From an uncultured Nitrososphaerota archaeon (GTDB taxonomy: Archaea; Thermoproteota; Nitrososphaeria; Nitrososphaerales; Nitrosopumilaceae): a DNA stretch of 64,000 bases. Below, one piece after another: positions 20,340-43,800 of this stretch. The notes under the pieces are model-generated. The model did not search any database. It was not told the DNA's origin and worked only from the letters and a program-made list of their open reading frames with translations. A program made the position numbers and the translations under genes. The stretch is from assembly GCA_963824385.1 (NCBI GenBank), contig CAWGPD010000004.1, forward strand, positions 96,001 to 160,000, read 5' to 3'. Numbering within the stretch: position 1 is the stretch's first letter; every line of letters begins with the position of its first letter.

Positions 20340-20552
20340 ATGGAAAGAATACGAGTCAAGTCAAGTAACATAAGATCAGTAGGATATGACGAATCTGCAC
20401 AAATATTAGAAATTGAGTTCCAACAAGGGGGAACTTATCGATACTTTGGAGTATCAAAGAAAATCTATGATAATTTGATAAAATCAGTATTATCACATGG
20501 AGAATATTATGAGAGATTCATCAAGAACAGATATAGACGTGAGAAGATTTAA
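20340..20552 (+). CDS. KTSC-domain protein
   Basis: VKSSNIRSVGYD...LEIEF..GGTYRY..V...SHGEYY...IK signature. Confidence 0.9.
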   Translation: MERIRVKSSNIRSVGYDESAQILEIEFQQGGTYRYFGVSKKIYDNLIKSVLSHGEYYERFIKNRYRREKI

Positions 20553-20559
20553 CGGCCAG

Positions 20560-20796
20560 TCATTTTTTTTTCTTTTGCGGAGTATATTTTTTTGGCTGCA
20601 ATTCCTCAAGTATGTCTTGAATATACACATAATCAGATTCAATACTGTCTCTAAGTAATTTTATAAGATTTTGAAAGGTTTCAGGCTTTCCGTCTTTGAA
20701 ATCCTGTTCATATTTTGAAATAAGTTCCTGAGATATTTTCTTTTTTGGACGATTGGCCAATCTTTCCAACATTTCAATAGCTCTTTTCATTGTCAT
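20560..20796 (-). CDS. Small hypothetical protein
   Basis: 78-aa ORF convergent with KTSC. Confidence 0.55.
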   Translation of the reverse strand: MTMKRAIEMLERLANRPKKKISQELISKYEQDFKDGKPETFQNLIKLLRDSIESDYVYIQDILEELQPKKYTPQKKKK

Positions 20797-21174
20797 GTGT
20801 AATCTTTTCCCTATCAGGCATCATTAAGATCTAATATTTTTTTCATTACATCATCTCTTTTGTCAAAATTGGTTTTCTTTTCAAAGTATAACTCACTATC
20901 ACATTTGTTTTGTTCTGAAATTAATTCATGCAATAGTGCGACAAGATCTTGTTTATTCACAATATCTTTTTCTCATTACTCCATCTAAACTCATCGATAA
21001 ATGATGTTTTCTAGACAACGATAGAATGTACACAACTTAAGTATGTCAAACAACAGCCATCATCATCAATGAATCTAACGATATGCCGTAATCATAAAAT
21101 TAAGAATAGAAAGACGGGTCAGAATTGAAAAGCATAATCAAAGTAAACAAGAACATTCTTGGAAAAAGGGTAAA

Positions 21175-21333
21175 ATGACAGAAAATAACAATGAACTGAC
21201 ATTAGAAGAAATGAAACAAATTATAGAGAAACATGTCAAAATAGATGGATTGAGTGTTCAAGGCATTCGCATAATTTATGAAGACATAAAGACACGTCAG
21301 GCAATTAAAAAACCCGAAGAAGATCAACATTAG
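21175..21333 (+). CDS. Small hypothetical protein (52 aa)
   Basis: MTENNNELTLEEMKQIIEKHVKIDGLSVQGIRIIYEDIKTRQAIKKPEEDQH. Confidence 0.5.
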   Translation: MTENNNELTLEEMKQIIEKHVKIDGLSVQGIRIIYEDIKTRQAIKKPEEDQH

Positions 21334-21353
21334 GAGAATTTGGAGGTTTAGAA

Positions 21354-21701
21354 ATGATAGAAAATAAACAGGCCCCAACTTACGAATGGAGAGACATAGG
21401 CATCATAACGGTAGATACTGGTAAAATAATCATTGCGGATCCTGCAAATGTACTTACACATAGAGAATTTGAAGAACTTCGTGAGAAAGAAAAAATAGCA
21501 AAATTCCCATTGTTTACAGATTTTAAACATGGTATAGTGTCAAAGACAGGATTCGGAGAGGGGCGTTATCACGCGTTTGCCAAGATCGGAGATTTTGGAA
21601 ACATGATAAAGAGAATTACAGAAATTAAAATTATTTTTGAGGACGAAGAAAATGACAAGGATTCTCAAAAAATGCAAGAAGAACCAGTAAAAACAAATTG
21701 A
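21354..21701 (+). CDS. DUF4241-like hypothetical protein
   Basis: IGIITVDTGKIIIADP and TGFGEGRY motifs; GGAGGT SD upstream. Confidence 0.65.
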   Translation: MIENKQAPTYEWRDIGIITVDTGKIIIADPANVLTHREFEELREKEKIAKFPLFTDFKHGIVSKTGFGEGRYHAFAKIGDFGNMIKRITEIKIIFEDEENDKDSQKMQEEPVKTN

Positions 21702-28577: not shown

Positions 28578-28605
28578 ATATTGCAGAATTCGAATTTAGA
28601 AATAT
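28578..28605. repeat. 28-bp palindromic element, copy 1
   Basis: ATATTGCAGAATTCGAATTTAGAAATAT. Confidence 0.75.
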
Positions 28606-28721
28606 ATTAAATCACCTATTGTAAGACGCGACTGTAACCAGAGATGCATGTCACTATGGTTACACATCAACTAAGAACAAGGTTGTTTAAAATAACATTT
28701 GATACAAAGGCACAGCGTAAA

Positions 28722-29360
28722 ATGAACTTCACAAATAAATGGAATGTACAAAAAGAAAGTCTATCACAGAGAGTAATAGACAAGGTAAAACCAGATGCAC
28801 CACTAAAGCCAAAAATCGATGAGGCTCAGAAAAAATTACAATTACAAGTCATAAAATTAGATTCTATTTCAAGAAAATTAAAAGAAAAAGATGATTTTAT
28901 TTTCAAAAAAGTTGTAGATGCGGTAAGATCACATAATAAGGCATATTCCAACGCTTATGCTACAGAATTACATGAGATTAGAAAAATGAATAATATGGTA
29001 ACTAATGCAAAATTAGCCATGGAACAAATTCAATTAAGATTAAACACAATATCAGAACTTGGAGATGTAGTGGTGACACTCAGTCCTTGCATGTCAATAA
29101 TAAAGGGACTTGGAACAGGCCTAAATGGATTAATGCCAGCAGCAGACTCGTCCATGGCAGACTTGTCAAACATACTAGGAGAGATAATGTCAGGTGCCTC
29201 AGTAAGCGGAGAGAACAACTTTACTGTTGAGACGACAAATTCAGAGACAAACCAAATATTGGAAGAAGCTCAGTCAATCTTAGAAGGACATGTGAGACAG
29301 ACCCTTCCGGACCTTCCTCCATCACTTGGTTCTACAACTAAAGCGCCAGAGCCTATTTAG
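28722..29360 (+). CDS. cdvB: ESCRT-III/Snf7 family cell-division protein (CdvB paralogue)
   Basis: Snf7-like helical core: YATELHEIRK...AKLAMEQIQLRLNTISELGDVVVTLSP...ILEEA. Confidence 0.85.
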   Translation: MNFTNKWNVQKESLSQRVIDKVKPDAPLKPKIDEAQKKLQLQVIKLDSISRKLKEKDDFIFKKVVDAVRSHNKAYSNAYATELHEIRKMNNMVTNAKLAMEQIQLRLNTISELGDVVVTLSPCMSIIKGLGTGLNGLMPAADSSMADLSNILGEIMSGASVSGENNFTVETTNSETNQILEEAQSILEGHVRQTLPDLPPSLGSTTKAPEPI

Positions 29361-29667
29361 AGCGCTTTTTACTCAATTCTATAAAGCGTTTCTTTATTCT
29401 AGATATTGTGGGATAGCTATATCCTAGTTTTCTATAATTTGCAATCATCATCTTCCAGTTTTTTAGCCTCCATTGAGCCTGCTCTGATGTTACAGAATGA
29501 ATTTCTTTATTGATAATGCTTTTTCTTCCCACTTTGAGTACTCCAGCATCTTTTGCAGTCCATCTATTTTTGGCAAAATTTAGGCCCATCAAGATTTCAT
29601 CAACAGGCATTGCCGTAAAAAATTCCTGGATTTTTTGAATTTGAGATTCAGTGGGTTTTTTTGACAT
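29353..29667 (-). CDS. Basic hypothetical protein
   Basis: MSKKPTESQIQK... The track start at 29712 falls inside palindrome copy 2, so 29667 is preferred. Confidence 0.7.
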   Translation of the reverse strand: MSKKPTESQIQKIQEFFTAMPVDEILMGLNFAKNRWTAKDAGVLKVGRKSIINKEIHSVTSEQAQWRLKNWKMMIANYRKLGYSYPTISRIKKRFIELSKKRSK

Positions 29668-29684
29668 ACGTATAGCAATATCAC

Positions 29685-29712
29685 ATATTTCCATATTCGA
29701 ATTTTGAAACAT
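29685..29712. repeat. 28-bp palindromic element, copy 2
   Basis: ATATTTCCATATTCGAATTTTGAAACAT. Confidence 0.75.
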
Positions 29713-29847
29713 ACTATCTAATTAGTGTAGAGGTAAATCAGAATAGATCTTAGGTTCAAACTAAATTTTTTAGCCCAATAAACAGGTGATCTGTATTTCC
29801 ATTTTTGGCAGACTGTTTTTTTATACTACGGATGAGGGATATAATTT

Positions 29848-30072
29848 ATGGATAACCGTCTCACACTTGGTGGAAAATCTCCCTCATTCTCAGAAATATT
29901 TACAGAGTATCTTTCAGATATCTCACTTGAAGTAGAGGCAGTTAAACTAAGAAACATAAGAAATGATGCAGAAGGAGTAAATGAACACTTGGCTAGAATA
30001 GATAGTGCCCTAAAGGGAATAATGGATGCAAAACTAGCATTGGCAGAAAATCTTCGTAAATCTCAAAATTAG
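29848..30072 (+). CDS. Small coiled-coil hypothetical protein
   Basis: 74-aa ORF. Confidence 0.6.
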   Translation: MDNRLTLGGKSPSFSEIFTEYLSDISLEVEAVKLRNIRNDAEGVNEHLARIDSALKGIMDAKLALAENLRKSQN

Positions 30073-30114
30073 AATTAATCACTTGTGAAAATTAAGTTTT
30101 AAAGTATCAACGTT

Positions 30115-30862
30115 CTACTCGTCTAAAAATCGCTTCATACTCTCAAATTCACTTGCAGTAAAATTCTTGTCTACAGAATCCATTTTTTGCTTCATCTTGG
30201 CAAATTTTTCAGCAAGTAGGGAGAGGTCTACTGGCTGGGCTGTCTCTGCATTTTTTAATTCAACGTAATATTTTATTCGGTCTTCAAAGGCATCTGGTGG
30301 AACCTCCTTAATCAGAACTTCTCCAGTAGTCTATAATTTTAGCCAATTTTTCTCTTTGGCGGTTCTCCAGTTTCTTTTTTTCATTTTCTATCTTTTGCCT
30401 ATGATCCTCATAACCCGATTTCATGTCTTTTAGTTCAGTTTCCAATTTGCCAAGAACATCATTTACAGTTTCAAACATAACTTTTGCAGGTTCAGGATTT
30501 GGCGTATTCTTCATTGTTTGGGAATTAGTAGATTGTCCTCCAATGTGTAATTCTTTCAGGGATTCATCAGTAACCAGTTTTATAGATATTGTTTTGGGGG
30601 CTTTTTTTGCTATTACTCCAAATACCATAAGACCCACTCCAGCAACGCCTGTCCCCATAATCAAATATTGAAGAACAGGTAAGACTTGGTGCATTGAGGG
30701 ATACCCCATCTGCCGTAGCATTGACACAGAATTCACATTTCCAAGAGACATTGAACTAACAAATGTATGTACGGCATTAGACAACATGCCTGGCAAATAG
30801 TAATACATTGGAACTGACATCATTGTAAGTACCATACCGGCAATTACCAGTACAAATCTCAT
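30115..30862 (-). CDS. Membrane protein (2 TM) with coiled-coil tail; frameshift near 30330
   Basis: MRFVLVIAG... continues after one indel as TTGEVLIKEVPPDAFEDRIKYY...FLDE*. Confidence 0.7.
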
Positions 30863-30931
30863 TATACAACAGACTAGATTGAACTTGATATCCAGTTGTA
30901 TGTAATAATGACTGACAACTATCCATTCCAC

Positions 30932-30959
30932 ATATTTCTATATTCGAGTTTTGAAATAT
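30932..30959. repeat. 28-bp palindromic element, copy 3
   Basis: ATATTTCTATATTCGAGTTTTGAAATAT. Confidence 0.8.
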
Positions 30960-31057
30960 TCTTCTAAATTACGGAAAACAGAATTTTCAGGTCAAAATGC
31001 TTCTAAGAATACCATCAAGAAAATAATTAAAAAATACTAGAATTACTAACACATGAC

Positions 31058-31354
31058 ATGGATGAATTGGACATACCTGCAAATAGAATTCCAAAAGACT
31101 CTGTTTACAAGAAAAGAAATTGTGATAAAGAAAAGTGTGGCAAAGAGGGAAATTATTCTTCAAAACGAGGGTACTTTTGTTTGGAACACATTCTAGATTA
31201 CGATATGCCATGCCCCAATGATAACTGCCCAAGAAAGGGCCTTGCCATGGATAAACTAGTTCCCGAAGTTAAAAAAGACATCAAGGGAGATTTGCACCAG
31301 ATTTTTCTATGCCAGTCCTGTGGGTATAGACATGATCATACTGTGAATGTTTAG
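31058..31354 (+). CDS. Small multi-Cys/His zinc-binding protein
   Basis: Cx4C...CxxH and Cx4C...CQSCG motifs. Confidence 0.7.
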   Translation: MDELDIPANRIPKDSVYKKRNCDKEKCGKEGNYSSKRGYFCLEHILDYDMPCPNDNCPRKGLAMDKLVPEVKKDIKGDLHQIFLCQSCGYRHDHTVNV

Positions 31355-31553
31355 TCAAATTCCAAAAAATCAAAAGGTTTGAAAAAAATCCACCAAAGTA
31401 TTTACAATAATCTACTTGAAACTTAAGATATTACTGGGAGCAATTAGAGATGGCTACCCACAAACTGACCAAGCCTGTAGTCGTGAGGGTTTTTGTGATT
31501 CTCTCACGATAAAATTACTTCAAAATATTTCAAATACAAAAAACGGGTCTCGC

Positions 31554-31706
31554 CTAATTTTTCTCTACATATTTCATAGATTCGGGCATGATGTTATTGA
31601 TGGCTTTGGAGTCTTTCTTGCAAAGTTCGCATTCACAAACAAATAATCCTTGTTTACCCATACAATCATGATGTTTGTCTTCAAAGCATTTGTAACATAG
31701 AACCAT
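31554..31706 (-). CDS. 50-aa Cys-rich microprotein
   Basis: MVLCYKCFEDKHHDCMGKQGLFVCECELCKKDSKAINNIMPESMKYVEKN. Confidence 0.65.
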   Translation of the reverse strand: MVLCYKCFEDKHHDCMGKQGLFVCECELCKKDSKAINNIMPESMKYVEKN

Positions 31707-32204
31707 GGGATTCAATTCCTTATAGTAAAATGGTCTATTTCTACCCCCCTATTTTACACCAAACTTGTTAGATCAGAGCAATTTACCAAGTCAAAAAATT
31801 GATAAAAATGATAATTTCTCCAAAATATTGTAATTTTGGAATTTACGCTCAATGGTTAAACCCCCAGTTATTTTCTACTAATTAGGCATAATGTGATTTT
31901 TTCAAAATCGTCTAATTTTAGGGGGGGTGTAACACTTGTGCGTGCATATGCAAGCCAAGGGTCAAAACACCCCCATTACTCAGTAAGAGTTTCATTTTCT
32001 TTTAGCAATATGAAGAAAAGCTAAACCCTAGTTTTTTGTGGTGAATTTTCAAATTTTGAAATGTTACAAAATATCAATATCGGAGACAGGCACAGATAAT
32101 CCCTAAAACCAGGTAGTTCATGCCCTAAAACCCTGGGGTATTGGACTAGAAGTTGATAGAAAACGCTCAAAATTTTCAGGATAAATGTTAGTGGACTCTA
32201 TTTT

Positions 32205-32468
32205 TCAGACAATAGATGTCCTTGCCATTTCTGGAATTTTTTCTCTTGCTTGAACAATTTCTATCTCCACAGTTTCAATTGGCTCATCCACTACATTTCG
32301 TTTAATGGAGAACATCTTTGGCTTATCAAAATCTTTAGTGCAGTCGGGACATGCATAAACCAGAACCCTATATTCATTGGGAGCTTTTGGGTTTGAAAGG
32401 CGAGGGTAGTAAACTAACCTGCCTCCACAATCCACGCAATATCTATTTGCGCGTCTTGTTCTGGCCAA
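32205..32468 (-). CDS. Zinc-ribbon protein
   Basis: CVDCG...CPDC; AGGAGGT SD before the TTG start. Confidence 0.8.
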   Translation of the reverse strand: MARTRRANRYCVDCGGRLVYYPRLSNPKAPNEYRVLVYACPDCTKDFDKPKMFSIKRNVVDEPIETVEIEIVQAREKIPEMARTSIV

Positions 32469-32556
32469 TGTGGACCTCCTGCATATACCATCATGATATG
32501 ATCTATATTAGATCCATACAGTCTAATAGAATCAACCAATATGTGATCGCATTACA

Positions 32557-32584
32557 ATATTTCATAACTCGAATTTAGAAATAT
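32557..32584. repeat. 28-bp palindromic element, copy 4
   Basis: ATATTTCATAACTCGAATTTAGAAATAT. Confidence 0.8.
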
Positions 32585-32638
32585 ACGATATTGAAACCTG
32601 CAATTTCCTGTTCAAAGAATTACAGTAATCAAAAAGTA

Positions 32639-32666
32639 ATGTTTCAAAACTCGAATTTAGAAATAT
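32639..32666. repeat. 28-bp palindromic element, copy 5
   Basis: ATGTTTCAAAACTCGAATTTAGAAATAT, 4 bp from the tRNA-Asn 3' end. Confidence 0.8.
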
Positions 32667-32670
32667 TAAG

Positions 32671-32744
32671 CGCCGCCCGCCAGACTTGAACTGGCGACCC
32701 GCTGGTTAACAGCCAGCTGCTCTACCACGCTGAGCTAGGGCGGC
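32671..32744 (-). tRNA. tRNA-Asn(GTT)
   Basis: GCCGCCC acceptor stem, CTGG-CT-GTT-AA-CCAG anticodon arm, GTTCAAGT T-loop; no intron, CCA not encoded. Confidence 0.96.
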
Positions 32745-32789: not shown

Positions 32790-33348
32790 CTATTTTTCGA
32801 TCTTGTCGAGTTTCTCAAAAAGATAAAGTCCGTCAAGGAAGACTCGATGATCTTTATTTTTGACTTTGGTGTTTTGTTGCAATGCCCCAGCAGTCTGAGA
32901 TACATCAGTCAGAACTGGACCAGTGATTACCACATCATCACCTTTTGGAACTACTTTGGTGTCACCAAATATTCTAGAGACTCTAGCCTGCACGTTCTCC
33001 TTGAAAGTTTTCCACGTGAATGTGACCATCTTTTACTTTAACTGTGATTGGAAAGTGTGCATATACAATTTTCATTTTAAAAGTATAGCCAGTCTGAACG
33101 CCCTTGATCAGCGTATTTACAATAGATTCTGCAGTTTTGAATATAGCATAATCTCGTTTTCTATCACCTAGAGATTTTAGGATGATGTTTTTCCCATCTA
33201 TTGCCAAATCTACAGGTATTTTTTTGAAAGTCTTTCTTGTTTTCCCTAGTGGTCCCTGGACATGCAATATTTTGTGACTTACAGATGCTTTTACTGCATC
33301 AGGAACTGGAATTGTTACTTCGTGTATCTCAACTTGCTTAGTAGACAT
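32790..33348 (-). CDS. rpl6: 50S ribosomal protein uL6; frameshift near 32988
   Basis: VYAHFPITVKV..ENFQGER then ...KDHRVFLDGLY after removing one G. Confidence 0.95.
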
Positions 33349-33730
33349 ATCCTATCAATAGCCCTCCCAAGCCACTCTTTGATGCCTCGTGATGAGACAT
33401 TACTCCTTGATTAGTAGTTACAATCAACATACCACGCGAGTATGATGGCAGATATTGTTGTTCCCACTTTGCATAATCACCCTTCTTTACTTTGAATCGG
33501 GGTGTAATTGCGCCACATTTTGTAATTTTTGCCAACAATTGTATCTTAAACTTGCCACCTTTTTTATCATCTACATGTTCAAATTCTCCAATGTAATTAT
33601 GATGTTGAAGTGTCTTTAGCACATCAGTAGCAAGTTTGGATGTAGGTAAAACAAGACATTCTCCTTTTCTTCTTGCCTCCGTGTTATACAAGGTGACAAA
33701 CATGTTTGCTAGAATATTAGTTGCTGGCAT
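33338..33730 (-). CDS. rps8: 30S ribosomal protein uS8
   Basis: YIGEFEHVDD, KCGAITPRF, TTNQGVMSH. Confidence 0.96.
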   Translation of the reverse strand: MPATNILANMFVTLYNTEARRKGECLVLPTSKLATDVLKTLQHHNYIGEFEHVDDKKGGKFKIQLLAKITKCGAITPRFKVKKGDYAKWEQQYLPSYSRGMLIVTTNQGVMSHHEASKSGLGGLLIGYVY

Positions 33731-33736
33731 TTTATA

Positions 33737-33913
33737 TCACTTAAATTTCCTAAACCCTAAAGAGTTTGCGACTTCTCTAAAGCACCGTCTGCAAAGATCT
33801 AGATCATATTTTTGAATTACAGCATTATAATCACCGCATCGCTTGCACCATCTGGAACCTTTTCCAAATGTATGGACTGTTCTGCCTGTTACTTTGTAAT
33901 CACGATTCTTCAT
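33737..33913 (-). CDS. rps14: 30S ribosomal protein uS14 (Zn type)
   Basis: Manual translation: GKGSRWCKRCG...LCRRCFREVANSLGFRKFK (58 aa, below track cutoff). Confidence 0.95.
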   Translation of the reverse strand: MKNRDYKVTGRTVHTFGKGSRWCKRCGDYNAVIQKYDLDLCRRCFREVANSLGFRKFK

Positions 33914-33914
33914 G

Positions 33915-34445
33915 TTATACTACCTGAATTCCAAACTCATGGGTTAGAAATGCTTTTGCATCTTCAGCAGTGATGATATGTGTACGTCCCACACTTGCTT
34001 TGTGTTTGCTTCTAAATCTAATATTGAAACCTGGTCTTGTAAGTGAAATTGAGATATCCATACCCAAGATTCCTACTTGTGGATCATATTTTACTCCTGG
34101 AATGTCTATGTGTTCCTTAATACCAAATGAAAGATTACCAAAATTATCAAATGATGAGCCCTGAATTTGATTACCCTTTGCTGCAAATAGCCTCTTGATA
34201 AGTACAATTGCAGGTTCATCACGTATTGTTACTGCAACACCAATTGGTTCACCCTTGCGTACACCCCAATCACGATATGTAGCTTTGGCAGATCGTGTAG
34301 ATGGTTTTTGTCCTGAAATATGCTGTAGAGCAACCTTTGCTTTTTCAATTGGGTCACCAGATTTTCCTACACCCATATTCAAAACTACTTTAGCAATTGA
34401 AATTTTCTTCATTGGAGATTCTGTTTGTTGTGCCATATCTATCAC
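33915..34445 (-). CDS. rpl5: 50S ribosomal protein uL5
   Basis: KVVLNMGVG, FDNFGNLSFGIKEHID, YDPQVGILG. Confidence 0.96.
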   Translation of the reverse strand: MIDMAQQTESPMKKISIAKVVLNMGVGKSGDPIEKAKVALQHISGQKPSTRSAKATYRDWGVRKGEPIGVAVTIRDEPAIVLIKRLFAAKGNQIQGSSFDNFGNLSFGIKEHIDIPGVKYDPQVGILGMDISISLTRPGFNIRFRSKHKASVGRTHIITAEDAKAFLTHEFGIQVV

Positions 34446-35158
34446 TGAATTTGTATCACCGGTTTATCTGTACCTATTGCCATTACCAAATCAGATTGAA
34501 TTTCAATTTGTCTATCACCAAGATCAACATCTGCTCTTTTTGGTAAGACAAATGTTCCAGATTTTACCTCTGTAAGTTTGCCCATACGTCCTGCATTTAC
34601 TCCACTTGTAATCATAACTTGAACTCCTTCTTTGAGAGGAATAATATCAAGAATCTTAGTTTTTGGTGTTTCAATCACACATGTATCTCCAACGTTTACC
34701 TTTGCATCAGAAATTAGAGTTCTACCATCATGGAATCCTAATTGAGTTTTCTTGCCCCTAATAGTTACCTTTGAAGTGACTTTGAGTAATTTCTTTGTTT
34801 TATCAGATGAGTTAATCTTGATTGGTTTTAAGACAGTCAAATCTTTTGGAACAAGTCTGTAAATATCAGGAACACCATCAAGCTCTACAACATCCATCAA
34901 ACCAATTCCATGATGAAGTGATTTTCTTACAATGCCGTCTACTTTGACTTTACCTCCATATATGACAGATTTTGCTTCCCTTAACGATGTAGCAAGTTTT
35001 AGAGTATCACGGAGAAATACAGCAGTTGGAATTGATACATCTTTTTTATGACCACCGGGTTTTACTGTAACAACAAATCGTTTGTCTTTTCTTGTAATAC
35101 CCCAGAAAAGTGGAGCCATTTGTCTTTTTAGTTTTTTACTGCCAGAAATGCTAACCAT
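34442..35158 (-). CDS. rps4e: 30S ribosomal protein eS4
   Basis: LKRQMAP..W, VKVDG.VR, GLMDV, HDGR. Confidence 0.96.
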   Translation of the reverse strand: MVSISGSKKLKRQMAPLFWGITRKDKRFVVTVKPGGHKKDVSIPTAVFLRDTLKLATSLREAKSVIYGGKVKVDGIVRKSLHHGIGLMDVVELDGVPDIYRLVPKDLTVLKPIKINSSDKTKKLLKVTSKVTIRGKKTQLGFHDGRTLISDAKVNVGDTCVIETPKTKILDIIPLKEGVQVMITSGVNAGRMGKLTEVKSGTFVLPKRADVDLGDRQIEIQSDLVMAIGTDKPVIQIQ

Positions 35159-35685
35159 TACTTAGTCCCCTTTGGTTTTTCGGTTTGTGATTTATCTTTT
35201 TTATCAGTCATTTTAGTATCCTTTGTCTTTTCTTTGGCAGCCTCTTTTTGTTCTTTTGGTTTTGTCTCTTTTGGTTTTGTCTCTTTTGGTTTTGTCTCTT
35301 TTGGTTCTGCTGCAGTTTCAGACTTAGGAGTCTTTGTTTTTTGTCCCTCTAATCTGTTTTGTCTCCATTTGTCTTCAAGATTTAATGAAGTAATAACAAC
35401 ATTTGATGGATGAATGAAAATGTCTACATTTCCACCCTTGAGTTTTTCACGTTTTATTCCCTCTATAGCAATTCCCCTCCTTTCTGTAGAAACACGAGTA
35501 ACTTTACCTTCAATTCCTTTGAATTCACCACGTAATACTTTAACACTGTCACCTTCGATAACACGCATGCTTTTACAATGATGTTTTTCTTTAAGATCTT
35601 TAGCAAGGTGAGACCCAAGTTGTTTGCTAAGCAAGTGTTTTGATGCAGTGTAAAGCATTCTTTTTCGGATTGTTGTTGGCTTCAT
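35158..35685 (-). CDS. rpl24: 50S ribosomal protein uL24 with Lys/Glu-rich tail
   Basis: GDSVKVLRGEFKG, IHPSNVVITSL. Confidence 0.95.
   Translation of the reverse strand: MKPTTIRKRMLYTASKHLLSKQLGSHLAKDLKEKHHCKSMRVIEGDSVKVLRGEFKGIEGKVTRVSTERRGIAIEGIKREKLKGGNVDIFIHPSNVVITSLNLEDKWRQNRLEGQKTKTPKSETAAEPKETKPKETKPKETKPKEQKEAAKEKTKDTKMTDKKDKSQTEKPKGTK
35252..35306. repeat. 15-bp tandem repeat (about 3.7 copies) encoding PKETK
   Basis: TCTTTTGGTTTTGTC x3 plus a partial copy. Confidence 0.9.
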
Positions 35686-35686
35686 A

Positions 35687-36124
35687 TTATACCACCATAG
35701 ATGCCAAGTTTGCAATTCTTGGATACTTTTCAGCGGCCTCGACTGCTACTGGTCCTTTGATTTCAGTACCTTTGATTTCACCCTCTGGTGTTACAAGTAC
35801 TGCAGCATTATCTTCAAATGTTACACGTGTTCCATTCAATCGTCTTACCGCATATTTTTGTCTAACAATAACAGCACCAAATATTTGTCCTCTAAGTTCA
35901 CCAGGACCTTTCTTAACTACTACATTACAAAAGTCGCCAACAGCTGCTGCAGGATAACGAGCAACTCTAGTTTTTGTTTTTTGAACCATCACAATTTCAA
36001 GAATCTTTGCACCAGTGTTATCTGCACATACTACTTGAGCTCCTAATGGAAGTGCTCTTGTAACATATGGTCTGAATTCTTGAACTCCTTTTGCTGATAC
36101 TGCACGACTTTTTGTTTGAGCCAT
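35687..36124 (-). CDS. rpl14: 50S ribosomal protein uL14
   Basis: CADNTGAK, FEDNAAV, KGPVA. Confidence 0.96.
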   Translation of the reverse strand: MAQTKSRAVSAKGVQEFRPYVTRALPLGAQVVCADNTGAKILEIVMVQKTKTRVARYPAAAVGDFCNVVVKKGPGELRGQIFGAVIVRQKYAVRRLNGTRVTFEDNAAVLVTPEGEIKGTEIKGPVAVEAAEKYPRIANLASMVV

Positions 36125-36447
36125 TATGATACTACCTCAACTACAACAAAAGAGACACTTTTTGAAATTGGTCTGCATTCAGCTGTAAGAACAATGTCAC
36201 CTTCTTTTACATCAATGCATTGAGGTCTGTGTGCATGTAACTTGCTTTGACTTCTAGCATATCTCTTTAACTTGATATCAAATCTTGGGAATTCTTGTTG
36301 TACTACGACAGTTTTTGGAGCTTTGGCACTAACTACTTTTCCTTGAACTAGTTTACCTCTAACACTTAGAACTCCATGAAATGGGCACAGGTCATCGTTG
36401 CATTCTGATTTTGGTACTTTAACTTGCAAGCCTATGTTTTTGGTCAT
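36124..36447 (-). CDS. rps17: 30S ribosomal protein uS17
   Basis: CPFHG.LSVRG, ECRPISKSVSF. Confidence 0.96.
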   Translation of the reverse strand: MTKNIGLQVKVPKSECNDDLCPFHGVLSVRGKLVQGKVVSAKAPKTVVVQQEFPRFDIKLKRYARSQSKLHAHRPQCIDVKEGDIVLTAECRPISKSVSFVVVEVVS

Positions 36448-36710
36448 GCTTTTACTCCCATTCTTTCATATGATCTTTTTGAAATTGATTTTCCAGCTAC
36501 AATTGAAGTTACTCCATTTAGATTAAATTTCCACATGGAATTCATTTTTGGCATGTGTTTTATGCCAGTGGAGGTTTCAATAGCAAACATAGATTTAGTT
36601 TCATCGATTATTTTTCCATGTAATCCTACCACTTGAGAATTATTAGATTCTAAAATAGTGGTTTCAAGTCCAATTAATTCATGACGTGCTATATTTTCAG
36701 TTGTAATCAT
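36444..36710 (-). CDS. rnp1: RNase P protein subunit Rpp29
   Basis: NIARHELIGL, GKIIDETK; canonical position. Confidence 0.92.
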   Translation of the reverse strand: MITTENIARHELIGLETTILESNNSQVVGLHGKIIDETKSMFAIETSTGIKHMPKMNSMWKFNLNGVTSIVAGKSISKRSYERMGVKA

Positions 36711-36910
36711 TTGGTTTTCAGCTCATTTAATCTAGTTAATACTCTTGCGATGTCTCTTCGAAGTGGCTTTACTTTACCACTATCTTTTCGTAATGTTCCC
36801 TTGGATGCCTCGATTTTTAATTTAGTTAGCTCAGAACGTAGTTGACCCAGTCTATCCTTAAGATCAGTCTCGTTAAATTCTCTTACAGTCTTCATCTTTA
36901 TTCGGGCCAT
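36707..36910 (-). CDS. rpl29: 50S ribosomal protein uL29
   Basis: RRDIARVLT motif. Confidence 0.94.
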   Translation of the reverse strand: MARIKMKTVREFNETDLKDRLGQLRSELTKLKIEASKGTLRKDSGKVKPLRRDIARVLTRLNELKTK

Positions 36911-37671
36911 TACTTGAGCTCCTCTTCTACCTCTTCAAAGGTTTCCACTTTTTCAATTAATTTTTCTTCTAATTCAATAACTTCACTTTCTGTACGTGGT
37001 TTTGTTGGGTCAATTTGTGCTTCCTCTACAATTTCAATCTCCAATGGAACTTCCTCGACTATGGGTTTTGCTTCTTTCTTGATTGCCTTTAATTCAAATT
37101 CTGGAATGAATCTTTCTTTTCTTGCAATTCTAATTCTGACCCCAATAAGACCCATTTTTGTCTGAACATGTGCAATATCTTCTGAAACTATTACCTCTGC
37201 GGCATGACCAGCACGTGGAAGTATACCTTTACTATGTTTTTCAAAGCTAGAACGATCACCTCTTAATTTACCTGAAGTTGTGATTTGTACACCCATTGCA
37301 CCTGCTTCCATGATTGTCTGCATTGTCCACATTACGGCTCGTCTAAATGCAGTACCTCTTGCAAGGTGTTGTGACATTCTATTACACATTACGCTAGGTT
37401 CAAGTTCTGGTTTTACAATTTCAATTACAGATATCTGTGGATTTTTAAGACCAAAGTCTTTTTCCAAAACTGCAGTAAGATCTCTTATTCCACTTCCTTT
37501 TCTTCCAATTACTATTCCAGGTCTTGTAACGTGCAATCCAACTCTGGTTCCAGTTGGAGTTTTTTGAATATCAACTTCTGAAAAACCTGCTTCTTTGATT
37601 GCTTCTCGTAGATAATCCTTCAAGAGCATTAATTTGTAACTATCATTGATGACATTTTTGACTGATGACAT
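36910..37671 (-). CDS. rps3: 30S ribosomal protein uS3
   Basis: MSSVKN...RPGIVIGRKG, GAMGVQI, SGKLRGDR. Confidence 0.95.
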   Translation of the reverse strand: MSSVKNVINDSYKLMLLKDYLREAIKEAGFSEVDIQKTPTGTRVGLHVTRPGIVIGRKGSGIRDLTAVLEKDFGLKNPQISVIEIVKPELEPSVMCNRMSQHLARGTAFRRAVMWTMQTIMEAGAMGVQITTSGKLRGDRSSFEKHSKGILPRAGHAAEVIVSEDIAHVQTKMGLIGVRIRIARKERFIPEFELKAIKKEAKPIVEEVPLEIEIVEEAQIDPTKPRTESEVIELEEKLIEKVETFEEVEEELK

Positions 37672-37673
37672 TT

Positions 37674-38130
37674 CTACAATTCCTGAGCTACTGAGCTCAA
37701 CATGAGTAAGAATATCTATTTTGGGCGATGATCTTCCCATTGCACGTGGAGTAGATCTTTTAAGTTTTCTACCTTTGTGAACAGTCGCATTAACTATTTT
37801 TAATCTATCAAGATCCATACCGCGGTATTCAGCATTTGACTCTAAATTATCAAGCAGTCTGAGAAATTCATTTGCTGCTTTTTCTGGATATCTTCCAGAC
37901 ATCACACCAGTATCGGATTTGTGACCAACTTCATTATTATATCTCTTAAATGGCACAGCACGTTCCAATCGTGTAACAGACTGGAGAAAACTTCTTGCAG
38001 ATTCTATAGACATGCCTTTTATGTGATGCCCAATTTCTCTTGCATGTTTGTGAGAAATAGTTTTTTCTCTTAACGCAGAACGTACGTGTCTTGTTTTATC
38101 ATAATTTTGGAAAGCGTAGTCAAAATGCAT
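37674..38130 (-). CDS. rpl22: 50S ribosomal protein uL22; an extra base near 37695 removes its stop
   Basis: GRYPEKAA, NAEYRG, PRAMGR, THVEL. Deleting one base restores VAQEL* 2 nt before the rps3 ATG. Confidence 0.93.
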
Positions 38131-38135
38131 AGATA

Positions 38136-38531
38136 TCACTTTAATGGCACATACAAGCTAGACCTTGATGCTCCCACACCAGGTGCTCCATGAACGACTC
38201 TCTTGTTGGTTAATACAAACTCTCCAAGATAATGTCCAACCATCTCTGGTCTGATTACTACGGGTTTGAATTCTTTTCCTGAATAAACATGAATTGTAAG
38301 ACCTGTAAAATATGGCAAAATTATAACGTCTCTAAGATGGGTTTTGATTTGTGTGCCAGTCTTTCCAGCGTTTGCAGCTTTGACTTCTTCGAGAAGTTTG
38401 CGCTTACCGTCTGTAATTCCTCTTGTAAGTGATCTTCTAGCTCTAGATGGCAAGAGTTTAAAGAGATTTTCTAATGACAGGGCCTTTAATTCTTCGATCT
38501 GAAGACCTCGATACTTGTATTCTTTAACCAT
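38136..38531 (-). CDS. rps19: 30S ribosomal protein uS19
   Basis: MVGHYLGEF, HGAPGVGASRSS.YVPLK. Confidence 0.96.
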   Translation of the reverse strand: MVKEYKYRGLQIEELKALSLENLFKLLPSRARRSLTRGITDGKRKLLEEVKAANAGKTGTQIKTHLRDVIILPYFTGLTIHVYSGKEFKPVVIRPEMVGHYLGEFVLTNKRVVHGAPGVGASRSSLYVPLK

Positions 38532-38572
38532 TTATTCTCACCATTACTTTAGTTGATTCAAGACTGACCATA

Positions 38573-38839
38573 TTATAGCATTCCTATCTTTGTAGCCAAG
38601 TCTCTTGCCTTTTCAACTGTCTGAAATTTTACAAATGCTTTTTTGCCATATATTGTTCTGCAGATATTTACCCTAATTGGATCCTCTTTGTAAAGAAGAG
38701 TTATTGCCTCTACAATTTTTGGCTTGGTTGCTTCTTCTTTTACCAGGAAACAGATTCTGCTTTGATTTTCAACTAGTGCAAATGTCTTTTCTGTAATGTA
38801 CGGTTTCAAAATTATGTGATTTGCTTCTTCAACATTCAT
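38573..38839 (-). CDS. rpl23: 50S ribosomal protein uL23
   Basis: PYITEK, KKAFVK. Confidence 0.94.
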   Translation of the reverse strand: MNVEEANHIILKPYITEKTFALVENQSRICFLVKEEATKPKIVEAITLLYKEDPIRVNICRTIYGKKAFVKFQTVEKARDLATKIGML

Positions 38840-39648
38840 TTTGTAGTCACCATAATTTCAAGATGAGGAGATTTTATTTTAGAAATTTCTTCAATGGCAC
38901 CCTTTGAAAATATTGTCAATCGGATTGGTCTTGCACCGGGAGCCAAGTCAAGTACGCTGACATTTTTTACATTTACTACATCTACTCCCAAAATAGAGCC
39001 TGCAGCTTTAGCAAGGTTCTTGGAATCTCTTACTACGAGCAATACACTCTTGCCTATCTTTGCTTGTCTGCCCCTAAGACGAGGTTTTCCTGTACGAGCT
39101 TTTCTCTCTTTTAGTCTATCAATATCTTGAGATAGATGTAAAGCATCGAAAATCTTTGCCAACTCTTTTGATTTGAATACAGATTCAATTTGATCAGAAA
39201 CAACTATTGGAAATGAATTTATTTTATCGACTTTGTGACCTCTAAGCTTTACCAAAGTAGCCGAAGTTGTTGCAGCCAATGCAGTACAAAGTGCAAGTCT
39301 ATTTTCTTTCTTGTTTAGCATTTTGTGTACTACTTTTTCTGAAGTTGGAGGATGCGCTTGTCTTCCCTTACGGGTCATTGCAACACCACCAGCTTGGCCT
39401 TGTCTTCCACCTCCACCGCCTGCCATTCTTGCAACTCTTGCTTGGTGATGACCGGTTGGAGGACTGTTTGATTCTGCAACCACATCCATACCTGCGTTTG
39501 GATATCTTCCTTGTCTTTGAAATCCGTGAGATTCCAAGTGGAGATATGCTTTGTGGATTAGCTCATTTCTAATTGGAGTTGAAAATACTAGAGGCAATTC
39601 AATGTCGCCATCGTTTGAACCCGTAGTTGAAAATACTGGAACTTTCAT
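38836..39648 (-). CDS. rpl4: 50S ribosomal protein uL4
   Basis: GRQAHPP, NKKENRLA, DLAPGA.P.RLT. Confidence 0.96.
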   Translation of the reverse strand: MKVPVFSTTGSNDGDIELPLVFSTPIRNELIHKAYLHLESHGFQRQGRYPNAGMDVVAESNSPPTGHHQARVARMAGGGGGRQGQAGGVAMTRKGRQAHPPTSEKVVHKMLNKKENRLALCTALAATTSATLVKLRGHKVDKINSFPIVVSDQIESVFKSKELAKIFDALHLSQDIDRLKERKARTGKPRLRGRQAKIGKSVLLVVRDSKNLAKAAGSILGVDVVNVKNVSVLDLAPGARPIRLTIFSKGAIEEISKIKSPHLEIMVTTK

Positions 39649-40643
39649 TTGTTAATCATAACCTCTAGTATTTTTGGTTGTGTAACCTTTGTTAATTTTG
39701 GTCTAACAGGAGCACGAAGTTTTACTAATCTTCTATAAGTTCCTGGAATTGAACCACGTATTACAACATAATCACCCTGAACTACTCCAAAGTGTTTGTA
39801 ACCACCTGTTGGGTTTATTTTTAATTCTTCATTTTCAGTGTTACTCATTATCATGATTCTATTATTATACTGAATTCTTTGATGGAAACCTCGTTGACCA
39901 GCTCTTGGAACAGTGTACATGATAGTTGAAGGACTGATTGGACCTAGTGTACCAAGAGCTCTAACACTCTTTCGTGATTTGTGTTGTTTCTTTTTGACAC
40001 CCCATCTTGTAATCGGACCTTCAATACCTTTTCCTTTGGTAATAGCTGCAATATCAACTTCGACCCCCTTCTGAAATACTTGATCAATTTTGACTTCTTT
40101 TCCCAATAGATTTTTTATAAACGCAAATTGTTTTAGAATGTCGCCACCTTTTACTGAAACTTCAAAAACATATGGCTTCTTTTGTTCAAGTCCTGCTTTA
40201 CGTGGAAGAATAGCTGCAATTGCAAAGAGTTCATCAATGTGATTAAGTAATTTTTCTGCTTTTTCAATTCCTTTTTCATCGGGTTTTGTTTTGAAAAGTC
40301 TTGAAAGTTCTTTTGGTAAATCTTTTGCATAAACATCAAAAGTTGAATCAACTCCATATCTATCTCTAGAATAACCGCGTATTCCAATTATAGACATTGG
40401 CGGTGTAACAACTACTGTACCAAGTCCGACAAGCTGTTTTCCAAAATTAGGAGTCTTTTCACGATCATCAATACTTGCTATACGCATACATGCTGCCTTG
40501 AAACCAGCATAACCTAATAGCTTTGGCTGATCTGCTTTGACATCTGGCCAAGTTCTAATTCTGGCTTCCATGCTCTTCGCTCTAGCCCTTGGTAAATATG
40601 CAAGGCTTCCCCTCCTAGGTTGACTATGCTTCCTATGACCCAT
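39645..40643 (-). CDS. rpl3: 50S ribosomal protein uL3
   Basis: PRRGSLAYLPR, TKGKG.EGP, VPRAGQ.GFHQR. Confidence 0.97.
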   Translation of the reverse strand: MGHRKHSQPRRGSLAYLPRARAKSMEARIRTWPDVKADQPKLLGYAGFKAACMRIASIDDREKTPNFGKQLVGLGTVVVTPPMSIIGIRGYSRDRYGVDSTFDVYAKDLPKELSRLFKTKPDEKGIEKAEKLLNHIDELFAIAAILPRKAGLEQKKPYVFEVSVKGGDILKQFAFIKNLLGKEVKIDQVFQKGVEVDIAAITKGKGIEGPITRWGVKKKQHKSRKSVRALGTLGPISPSTIMYTVPRAGQRGFHQRIQYNNRIMIMSNTENEELKINPTGGYKHFGVVQGDYVVIRGSIPGTYRRLVKLRAPVRPKLTKVTQPKILEVMINK

Positions 40644-40723
40644 AGATAAATGGCAATTGTCGAAAACCCCATTATAAGTCTATAAGCGAAAAAGAGTAAA
40701 AATTTGATTTTTAAATTGAGATC

Positions 40724-40828
40724 TTAGTGCAAAAAATGCATTATGCTTGAAATCATGACAATACTTCCAATTAGAATTCCTGCAACACCTGCAATAATTC
40801 CAAAAAGTAAAAATTTTTTTTTCTCCAA
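40724..40828 (-). CDS. 34-aa single-TM microprotein
   Basis: TTG start: MEKKKFLLFGIIAGVAGILIGSIVMISSIMHFLH. Confidence 0.5.
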   Translation of the reverse strand: MEKKKFLLFGIIAGVAGILIGSIVMISSIMHFLH

Positions 40829-40860
40829 TATTTTCTTACCAATCCAGATCCATATTAAAA

Positions 40861-41677
40861 CTAGTTACGAGTCAGAGTATTCAAGACTGCAAGAGTTCCA
40901 AGAATGGCCTCTTCCAGTCTGACAGTTTCTGTTGCTTGGTCTGGAAAGAAATTCAACACTTGCGATCTTGGGATATTGCCAATATTTTTTCCCAAGATTC
41001 TCATGAACCCCTTTTTTGGGAGAACCAAAAACAATCAAGACGTTTTCGTGAGAGATTTCGTCAAAATATTTTTGAGTTTTATGTATGATTTTGCCTTTTC
41101 TTGATGTAAGTATAACAGGTGAACCCCAAGTGCTAAGAAAATTAGCAAGATTGGATATCTCTTTTACATCATAGCCCCAATACTGTGAAATCTCTTCTTT
41201 TCCAATCTGTTTTATGGAAAATTTTGGATACCCTTCCTTGAATTGAACTATAATCCTCTTTCCTTCTTCGTCTTTGCCATAATATGGGATTAATTCTTCA
41301 AAACCAACGTTTACAAATTTTCCTCCTCTTGAATATACAACAACACCATCTCTGATATCTCGTGCTTTGACTTTTTTTGGATCAGTTGTTTGTACATGGG
41401 ATGGAATCTTGAGCGGGCTAAGACTGCCAGCAAATTGCAGGTCACTGCTCATAGGGTAAAGCATTCTGCGAAGATATTGTGGTGTTTCAAGGTAACGAAG
41501 TATAGTTCTAAGTAATGATCTATCTCTGTCAGAGCCGCTAGATTCTTTGTAGATGTAAATTTCGTTTACATGAAATATTGAACAAGCCCTTGCAATCTGA
41601 GATATCTTCATTGCTTTGTCAAGAGGAGTGGGCTCTTCAGATAGTGACGAATCAGGAAGCGCTATTGAAATTTTCAA
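40861..41677 (-). CDS. SPOUT RNA methyltransferase (DUF171 type); frameshift near 40995
   Basis: IARACSIF.V.EI, YLETPQYLR, VFGSP; C-terminal PDQATETVRLEEAI in the shifted frame. Confidence 0.9.
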
Positions 41678-43463: not shown

Positions 43464-43800
43464 ATTCTGACTTCATCTTTTCTAGTAATCCTAAAAGATC
43501 AAGAGATCATATTTTTTTGTCTATTACGTAATTTTATTTTATGTTCCATGTTTGATCAATCCGTCGGAATATTTCTAGTCACAATACAATACACGACAGA
43601 ACATACCGATGCACATCATAGCGCAAGTATCAAATCAATAACAGTTGTACCAATATCATACCGTTATCATCATTATTGTACCGGTACAAAAAATACTAAA
43701 AATTTTAAAAAAAGATAAAATTTGGAAAAAATGTTTCCCCTGTGGGTCAAATGTGCGACAGGAAGGAAGAATGTAGAAGAGCTTGAATTTAAAATTCGAG

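Follow-up and report, generated by a model that had tools for sequence, protein, structure and literature searches.

In a 64,000-nucleotide stretch of DNA from an uncultured Nitrososphaerota archaeon (GenBank assembly GCA_963824385.1, contig CAWGPD010000004.1, positions 96,001 to 160,000; below, the window, C4:96001-160000), a 28-bp palindromic site occurs in five copies around a cdvB gene and a gene for a 113-amino-acid (113-aa) protein. The site is conserved, forms a single cluster per genome at a steady position relative to cdc6, has a copy at the promoter of the 113-aa protein gene and has been captured by viruses. We tentatively favour the explanation, drawn from sequence comparison, that it is a landmark of the matS or parS kind on the terminus side of the chromosome, whose putative binder, the 113-aa protein, would be autoregulated; we put the chance of this whole slightly below even. 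A protein very probably binds the site. The 113-aa protein is somewhat more probably than otherwise both this binder and the repressor of its own gene through the promoter copy, and whether the main job of the site is chromosome organisation rather than gene control is evenly balanced.

A 28-bp site conserved in four ammonia-oxidiser families

The source assembly comprises 1.68 Mb in five contigs and is 86% complete; the named homologues of the window's proteins are from Nitrosotalea. The five palindromes reported in the initial annotation are present where it placed them, each self-complementary at 22 of 28 positions. Their leave-one-out scores with a position weight matrix (PWM) were 31-38 bits, and three dinucleotide-block shuffles of the genome gave at most 22.6 bits. 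With a refined PWM built from the sites of relatives, the five sites scored 34.9-41.6 bits and the next best place 4.3, and the absence of further copies, first noted for the window, extends to the whole assembly. The weak copy listed near 43785 scored -12, and there is no site there. The distances of site 1 to the cdvB start (116 bp) and of site 5 to the tRNA-Asn 3' end (3 bp) agree with the annotation. Its statement that all sites are intergenic fails for site 2, whose palindrome contains the ATG of the adjacent gene at 29694; homologues align from this ATG, which gives 113 aa in place of the 104 aa first read.

A degenerate pattern allowing up to two mismatches matched 164 of the 301 genomes of the order, and the reversed pattern, used as a control, matched 4 of 301. 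The site was found in all 73 genomes of f1, the family of the window's genome, and in 9/9, 10/11 and 70/73 genomes of f4, f9 and f15, the other ammonia-oxidiser families (162/166 together). The degenerate pattern matched none of 133 genomes in 15 other families, and a single weak match in f17 was not confirmed by a second pattern. amoA was present in 8/8 tested genomes of f4, f9 and f15 and in 0/14 others, f1 being outside this test. Four family genomes were unmatched: G263, which has degenerate sites, G140, G272 and G073. G140 and G272, in which no cdvB orthologue was found, probably lack this region.

Site statistics were taken from 125 sites in 41 loci of 40 genomes, the loci being chosen around known matches. 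The consensus is ATATTTCTAAATTCGAATTTAGAAATAT (37.4 bits), with information peaks at the C of position 7, the central CG and the G of position 22, and the flanking sequence carries about 0.1 bit per base. Apart from family-level differences at positions 8-9, the two arms hardly covary, and the sites stay AT-rich in loci with 55-62% GC. Two to five copies are present in the loci of 39 of the 40 genomes, and the remaining genome has four over two loci. The cluster spans 0.5-12 kb, with a maximum of 22 kb in G164. Close relatives differ by gains and losses of copies, and no comparable match was found outside the cluster in the closed genomes searched. The literature searched (few subscription journals, supplements not covered) contained no description of the 28-bp site.

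The cluster lies far from cdc6

The position of the cluster was measured in 27 closed, single-contig genomes of f1, f9 and f15, which are kin to one another. In all 27, the cluster lies at 0.397-0.492 of the genome from the main cdc6 gene, or 143-177 degrees (median 163). The comparison gene, for topoisomerase IB, ranged over 0.12-0.50 from cdc6 in 17 of the 27. In G314 the cluster lies at 0.49 from cdc6 although rps8 has shifted to 0.31, and in G136 and G038 it lies at 0.42 and 0.45, with the candidate gene 426 and 250 kb off. The chromosome-organisation array proposed in the initial annotation gains support from the one cluster per genome and from this position in 27/27 closed genomes. Upstream of cdc6 in the window's assembly there is an AT-rich stretch with G-string boxes, which we take to be like origin recognition boxes (ORB). 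Nitrosopumilus maritimus has a single origin according to a review (PMC4010727).

The large ribosomal-protein operon (window 32790-41677, and its counterparts in relatives) was found 112-177 degrees from cdc6 in the 27 closed ammonia-oxidiser genomes. In bacteria this operon usually lies near the origin.

A candidate binding protein

The 113-aa protein is encoded in single copy in 39/39 genomes of f1, 6/6 of f4, 9/10 of f9 and 36/38 of f15, and its gene was not found in 57 genomes of other families. A search at class level gave one weak match outside the families, and 48 matches were found among 1.84 billion representatives. At family level, it has no match in Pfam, NCBIfam or PDB sequences. 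The site stands at the start of the gene in 17/17 genomes read from f4, f9 and f15, just 5' of a TATA-like box; in f1 it lies over the start codon in 10/24 genomes, all of the window's genus. As far as sequence can tell, both placements are repressor positions.

The monomer model of the candidate contains no strand (predicted local distance difference test, pLDDT, 87; predicted template modelling score, pTM, 0.49). A homodimer was predicted with a score of 0.43, the best control reaching 0.00, with contact agreement of at least 95% and pLDDT of at least 73; 20 of 30 known dimers attain the mark of 0.42 used for dimers, as does 1 of 23 single chains. The predicted interface is formed by residues 3-45, a strand-like segment and two helices with symmetric helix contacts, and it leaves the invariant GRKS and RxxGYSYPTIxRIK segments free. 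No ribbon-helix-helix structure matched the candidate in the fold search. The initial proposal of a site for a dimeric DNA-binding protein is supported by the 37 bits of the site, its nearly independently varying arms and the predicted homodimer.

Two other proteins were considered as binder and rejected. Topoisomerase IB is found in 104/111 genomes, site-less families included. The genome's ParB-like protein (C3:112636-113499) is patchy, with no site nearby, and was not found in the closed genomes G148 and G110; it occurs in 16/25 f1 genomes and has relatives in site-less families. This ParB-like protein (L354:2637-3500, the same as G000:C3:112636-113499) has a middle part resembling a helix-turn-helix (HTH) and no parA neighbour; close orthologues occur in about half of the family and are absent from some closed genomes.

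Neither the candidate gene nor a site above control was found in G073, which is amoA-positive, 96% complete and in 30 contigs. Among the amoA-positive genomes in which no site exceeds chance, it is the only one where a cdvB orthologue was nevertheless found, and it possibly represents the state before the system arose. In G073, the best cdvB match has a cdvC-like ATPase gene as its neighbour and is about 8 kb away from cdc6 (L381-L382, G073:C24), and the amoA of this genome is the most divergent tested.

The sites and their neighbouring genes

The genes flanking the sites vary by family. In f1 they are Zn-ribbon, pyridoxamine-oxidase-like and small membrane genes, in f15 bio and sugar-nucleotide genes, and in f9 others again. 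Among 86 sites with both neighbours within 250 bp, which are not independent of each other, 10 lie between convergent genes, 18 between divergent genes and 58 between tandem genes; the genome-wide proportions of such gaps are 14%, 26% and 60%. With variable flanking genes and gap types at chance level, the sites do not form a simple regulon, and in the loci read they are not confined to the promoters of a conserved gene set. The site upstream of cdvB was found in the window's genus, in g9 and once in f15, and nowhere else among the loci read. The cell-cycle regulon offered as one possibility in the initial annotation is therefore not borne out, this site being restricted to the genus and its nearest relatives. 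cdvB itself is convergent with the candidate gene in nearly all loci read.

Many copies lie close to gene ends: for 47 site ends, the 3' end of a gene or tRNA is no more than 12 bp away. A site kept over at least six genera sits 0-16 bp past a stop codon, and in several loci the convergent gap that holds it is narrow, for example 11/2 bp or 1/9 bp. Spacings to start codons were 88-89 bp for the Zn-ribbon gene in 16 loci and 28-37 bp for several other starts. The 88-bp distance of site 4 is kept in 16 of the 23 loci having the Zn-ribbon gene, and genes retain their upstream elements where the site is lost. Site 3 is missing in some close relatives although both flanking genes are kept. The features of the locus are listed in Table 1.

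Table 1. Sites and adjoining genes in the window (site scores from the refined PWM)
Feature	Position	Strand	Score (bits)	Remarks
Site 1	28578..28605		35.2	10 bp past the stop of a DsbD/thioredoxin operon, 116 bp 5' of cdvB
Site 2	29685..29712		34.9	over the start codon (29694) and probably also the transcription start of the 113-aa candidate binder gene
Site 3	30932..30959		37.8	between divergent genus-specific genes
Site 4	32557..32584		39.3	88 bp upstream of the Zn-ribbon gene start
Site 5	32639..32666		41.6	3 bp past the 3' end of the tRNA-Asn that closes the large ribosomal-protein operon
CdvB/ESCRT-III homologue	28722..29360	+		best model CdvB1/B2, score below the model's cut-off
Candidate binder, 113-aa basic protein	29353..29694	-		no known family, single copy in ammonia oxidisers
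Zn-ribbon protein	32205..32468	-		conserved in the window's family; upstream elements kept in relatives without the site
tRNA-Asn(GTT)	32670..32744	-		site adjoins the 3' end in many f1 and f4 loci

Some further features of these loci were seen. The 88-bp stretch at window 32469-32556 keeps short GATC-containing blocks across genera, even without the site, and may be a second regulatory element 5' of the Zn-ribbon gene. A small Ala/Lys/Arg-rich, histone-H1-like open reading frame (ORF) ends convergently at the site behind the pyridoxamine-oxidase-like gene (L037, L038, L049, L050, L083, L084, L086). At window 20340-21701, small unassigned genes, including one for a KTSC-domain protein, are inserted between bioD and bioA of the biotin cluster. 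The window has one extra base each at 30330 and 32987 compared with 3 of 4 sequencing runs, which shorten ORF 30308-30931 and split rpl6 (32790-33348). These bases and the likewise split topoisomerase IB gene (C3:253075-253765) are probably assembly errors.

Comparison with Xer/dif

The site resembles dif in its length of 28 bp, made of two 11-bp arms and a 6-bp spacer, in its location far from oriC, in the termination half of the chromosome (143-177 degrees from cdc6, 27/27), and in being carried by small circles. The spacer of dif is asymmetric and sets direction without being read for its sequence, whereas here it is conserved and often palindromic: the 125 spacers are TTCGAA (68), CTCGAG (12), CTCGAA (36) and others (9), palindromic in 80 and asymmetric in 45, with the central CG in 124. 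dif is described as a single copy per chromosome (PMC8371274), but several copies per genome are found here. Thaumarchaea are stated to be without xerA and may have recruited another recombinase (Cortez 2010).

Most genomes hold some tyrosine recombinase, of kinds that are reported to be carried by mobile elements (PMC6563490). No match to PF00589, PF16795 or PF00239 was found in the closed site-bearing genomes G058, G166 and G181, and the window's assembly has no PF00589 match; a strongly divergent recombinase could escape these models. Sites 1 and 2, both with the spacer TTCGAA, flank cdvB. Blocks are inverted between f9 genera, with sites at both ends, and between f15 genera, with sites at one or both ends. 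The orientation of the genes between sites is constant in 6 loci of the window's genus and 12 loci of six other genera, and one f1 locus (L044) is rearranged. Four sequencing runs, compared as contigs and hence insensitive to rare events, gave a single doubtful joint, with 25 letters on one side and 19 in between, which we interpret as the site of a relative aligned to another copy. Of the dif-like site considered in the initial annotation, the 11-6-11 length stands, and the single copy, the free spacer and the conserved recombinase do not. Multiple copies, a conserved, palindromic spacer and the lack of a recombinase match in three closed genomes indicate that the site is probably not dif. 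A protelomerase-type hairpin site was also rejected, as the 45/125 asymmetric spacers and the single closed contigs of the chromosomes would speak against it.

Viruses and small circles carrying the site

The exact pattern was found in 25 IMG/VR contigs of 4.2-4.8 kb. To obtain a set free of site bias, circles were collected through a shared protein, and one 699-base fragment was dropped; the site was present in 33 of 75 (once in 32, twice in 1) and absent from 42. The circle group (L051-L075, L097-L164, L222-L298) is marine, 4.0-4.8 kb in length, and has five shared genes and a two-state divergent promoter module. Two operons diverge from the site, with start codons mostly 27-28 nt from both site ends, and the divergent gap is about 84 bp with the site versus 54 bp without it. 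Its presence is scattered over the circle tree (16 changes; shuffled mean 18.6), and the promoter module, with or without the site, moves freely across this tree. No replication or recombinase gene was recognised in the circles, and no PHROG family was matched at useful E-values; the model of the 127-aa circle protein was unusable (pLDDT 38).

No host-virus junction was seen in 126 site-bearing viral loci (duplicates included, flanks judged by eye), and linkage at the circle site was not lowered (residual r2 -0.006, range -0.047 to +0.083). Integration of the circles was rejected, with no copy in genome contigs save one weak 36% match. At least 77 metagenome loci of the circles were found, all of 6.2 kb or less among the matches listed and none integrated. 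Judged from the site alone, the host of the circles is probably a member of Nitrosopumilaceae. Charybdis elements (bioRxiv 10.1101/2025.08.03.668216) are likewise described as marine 4-5 kb circles without a recognisable Rep or hallmark gene; compared by description, they differ in that their hosts are given as Poseidoniales, and the available text contains no 'palindrom', 'Nitroso' or 'inverted repeat'.

Among the spindle-shaped viruses of Nitrosopumilaceae, 1 of 11 has the site (BK067785.1, 31 bits; L389:10325-10352). The site stands at the limit of this virus's homology with its close relatives, and an operon begins about 60 bp downstream of it. The word stem 'palindrom' is absent from the available text of the paper describing these viruses (PMC10866085). 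The two unrelated virus groups appear to have gained the site independently. A gene for a tyrosine recombinase of 190 aa (L389:15879-16457), unnamed in the records, is present in 10 of the 11 spindle-shaped viruses. Weaker matches (25 bits) were seen in the viral contigs L192 (a 28-kb IMG/VR contig) and L199 (2.8 kb).

Discussion

By analogy, the site would work like matS or parS, while departing in tested defining features from each of dif, matS, parS/SegAB and a regulon. It shares with matS its palindromic form and terminus-side location, and the predicted dimer and helical end of the candidate parallel the architecture of MatP, a ribbon-helix-helix dimer with a helical DNA-binding bundle, as described in PMC12756933. 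A link to division is here suggested by the adjacent cdvB gene. However, the candidate has no sequence or fold match to MatP, its domain order is reversed, and the gene of the binder itself carries the site. Homology to MatP was sought for the candidate protein only and none was found; the rest of the genome was not searched. With ParB/parS, SegB and AspA, the site has in common a few clustered palindromes beside the gene of a putative dimeric binder with likely autoregulation, and its outer arms presumably resemble parS/Noc half-sites. ParABS and the SegA/SegB system of Sulfolobus (PMC7617429) differ from it: the site is longer and lies opposite the origin, and the ParB-like protein of this genome, besides its patchy occurrence, is not encoded near the sites. 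The geometry at the candidate's promoter and in the circles resembles that of archaeal operators overlapping the transcription factor B recognition element (BRE) and TATA box; but here there is no regulon, copies stand in convergent gaps and at 3' ends, and the chromosome has a single cluster. What the site would share with a regulon is an autoregulatory copy on the regulator's own promoter (17/17 outside f1, 10/24 in f1), if the candidate is the binder.

Several observations weigh against the landmark explanation. In 24 of the 27 closed genomes, rps8 and the cluster are no more than 20 kb apart, and rps8 ranges over a nearly equal 0.31-0.49 from cdc6; synteny therefore explains much of the cluster position, and the clean decoupling of the cluster from linked genes rests on one genus. 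The switch of skew at fourfold sites falls near C4:41 kb (27-46 kb), at a distance of about 85 kb to the cluster, which is therefore on the terminus side and not at the exact point where the forks would meet. No skew switch was found at cdc6 on contig C2, so the origin was not placed by skew, and cdc6 as the origin rests on the presumed ORB-like boxes and the single origin of one species. As for the candidate, 14 of 24 f1 genomes are without the site at its gene, and the dimer score of 0.43 is barely above the mark. Its C-terminal three-helix end is conserved, with an RxxGYSYPTIxRIK segment that is weakly HTH-like (Pfam E 0.09-0.12), and fold searches gave no clear match (best Z 5.6; Atlas matches below 0.9). 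G041 has two sites, but neither the candidate gene nor a cdvB orthologue was found in it; moreover, the distribution of the candidate equals that of any ammonia-oxidiser core gene, and linkage confounds its co-absence with the site. matS is a short site in an array spread over 800 kb, whereas the 28-bp site occurs in 2-5 copies within 2-22 kb, the five of the window within 4.1 kb and none elsewhere. No ParA/SegA-like gene was recognised in the loci read, which is as far as the search for ParA went, and no partner ATPase or SMC link emerged. In the circles, the site is placed exactly between two divergent promoters, and the fixed spacings of 88 bp and 28-37 bp look regulatory.

Gene control could account for these last points. 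A dimeric repressor or activator, probably the 113-aa protein, would control itself and a few neighbours, the cluster would be a by-product of gene order, and viruses would use the site to time their structural genes through a host factor. We regard such an operator-only role as unlikely but deserving attention: the site borders the TATA-like box of the candidate gene or overlaps the gene's start, keeps its distances to circle start codons, in a gap widened from 54 to 84 bp, and to the Zn-ribbon gene in 16 loci, and precedes the viral operon. It is opposed by the lack of a target set common to the families, by the site kept behind a stop codon over at least six genera, in several loci in tight convergent gaps, by chance-level gap types, by upstream elements that outlast the site, and by the absence of copies outside the cluster in the closed genomes searched; 37 bits would also exceed the need of a local operator. 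Distinctly unlikely is a dif-like role, in which an unrecognised or borrowed tyrosine recombinase would resolve chromosome dimers and the circles would use the site for resolution or integration. Besides its length, position and carriage by circles, the inverted blocks could be cited for it, although short repeats alone could yield rare inversions. The spacer, the most conserved part of the site and palindromic in 80/125, would give no direction; the copies flank cdvB and bio genes, which would be excised. The orientation of genes is constant, recombinase matches are missing from three closed site-bearing genomes, no viral junction, integrated copy or linkage drop was seen, and 10 of the 11 spindle-shaped viruses encode a recombinase while only 1 has the site.

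The 47 site ends near 3' ends, the copies behind the tRNA that ends the ribosomal-protein operon, the convergent placements and the terminus-side position would also suit a roadblock, in which the bound site would end transcriptional read-through, or stall replication forks, where that operon ends, like a non-polar Ter or a terminator-binding factor. This is improbable, as a symmetric site has no polarity, the skew switch is about 85 kb off, clusters lie 43-400 kb from rps8 in 3 of the 27 closed genomes, and the viral sites are upstream of promoters. A selfish or structural repeat without a dedicated binder, such as a repetitive extragenic palindrome (REP), a miniature inverted-repeat transposable element (MITE) or an RNA hairpin, is very improbable indeed. 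The perfectly palindromic consensus and the gain and loss of copies between close relatives fit such a repeat, but it is found nowhere else in the genome, its flanks hold about 0.1 bit, and it is near-invariant over four families. REP/MITE-type scatter, named beforehand as the observation that would count against the proposal, is excluded. An RNA hairpin or known non-coding RNA was rejected, with no Rfam match except the tRNA and little covariation of the arms.

If the site is a terminus-side landmark, the N-terminal dimer of the 113-aa protein would sit over the dyad centre, with its two HTH-like ends on the outer TTTC/GAAA blocks. The promoter copy would keep the level of the protein low. 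The bound cluster would label the late-replicating region so that it can be organised or partitioned, perhaps together with the adjacent CdvB, and the placement of copies against gene ends would spare promoters. Viruses may acquire the site so that it recruits the host protein or titrates it. In a bolder and rather doubtful scenario, ammonia oxidisers, being without XerA, would have evolved their own compact terminus array of 28-bp sites opposite the origin and a dimeric protein, specific to the lineage and encoded tail-to-tail with the ESCRT-III division gene, that couples the last-replicated region to the Cdv ring, and two unrelated virus groups would have captured the site for the same purpose.

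Archaeal chromosome segregation is presented as an open question in PMC7617429. For the ammonia oxidisers, the present analysis offers a well-defined site in cis, its constant place on the chromosome and, as candidate binder, the 113-aa protein, which belongs to no known family. The 28-bp site also serves as a host marker, pointing from unassigned 4.2-kb marine circles to ammonia oxidisers.

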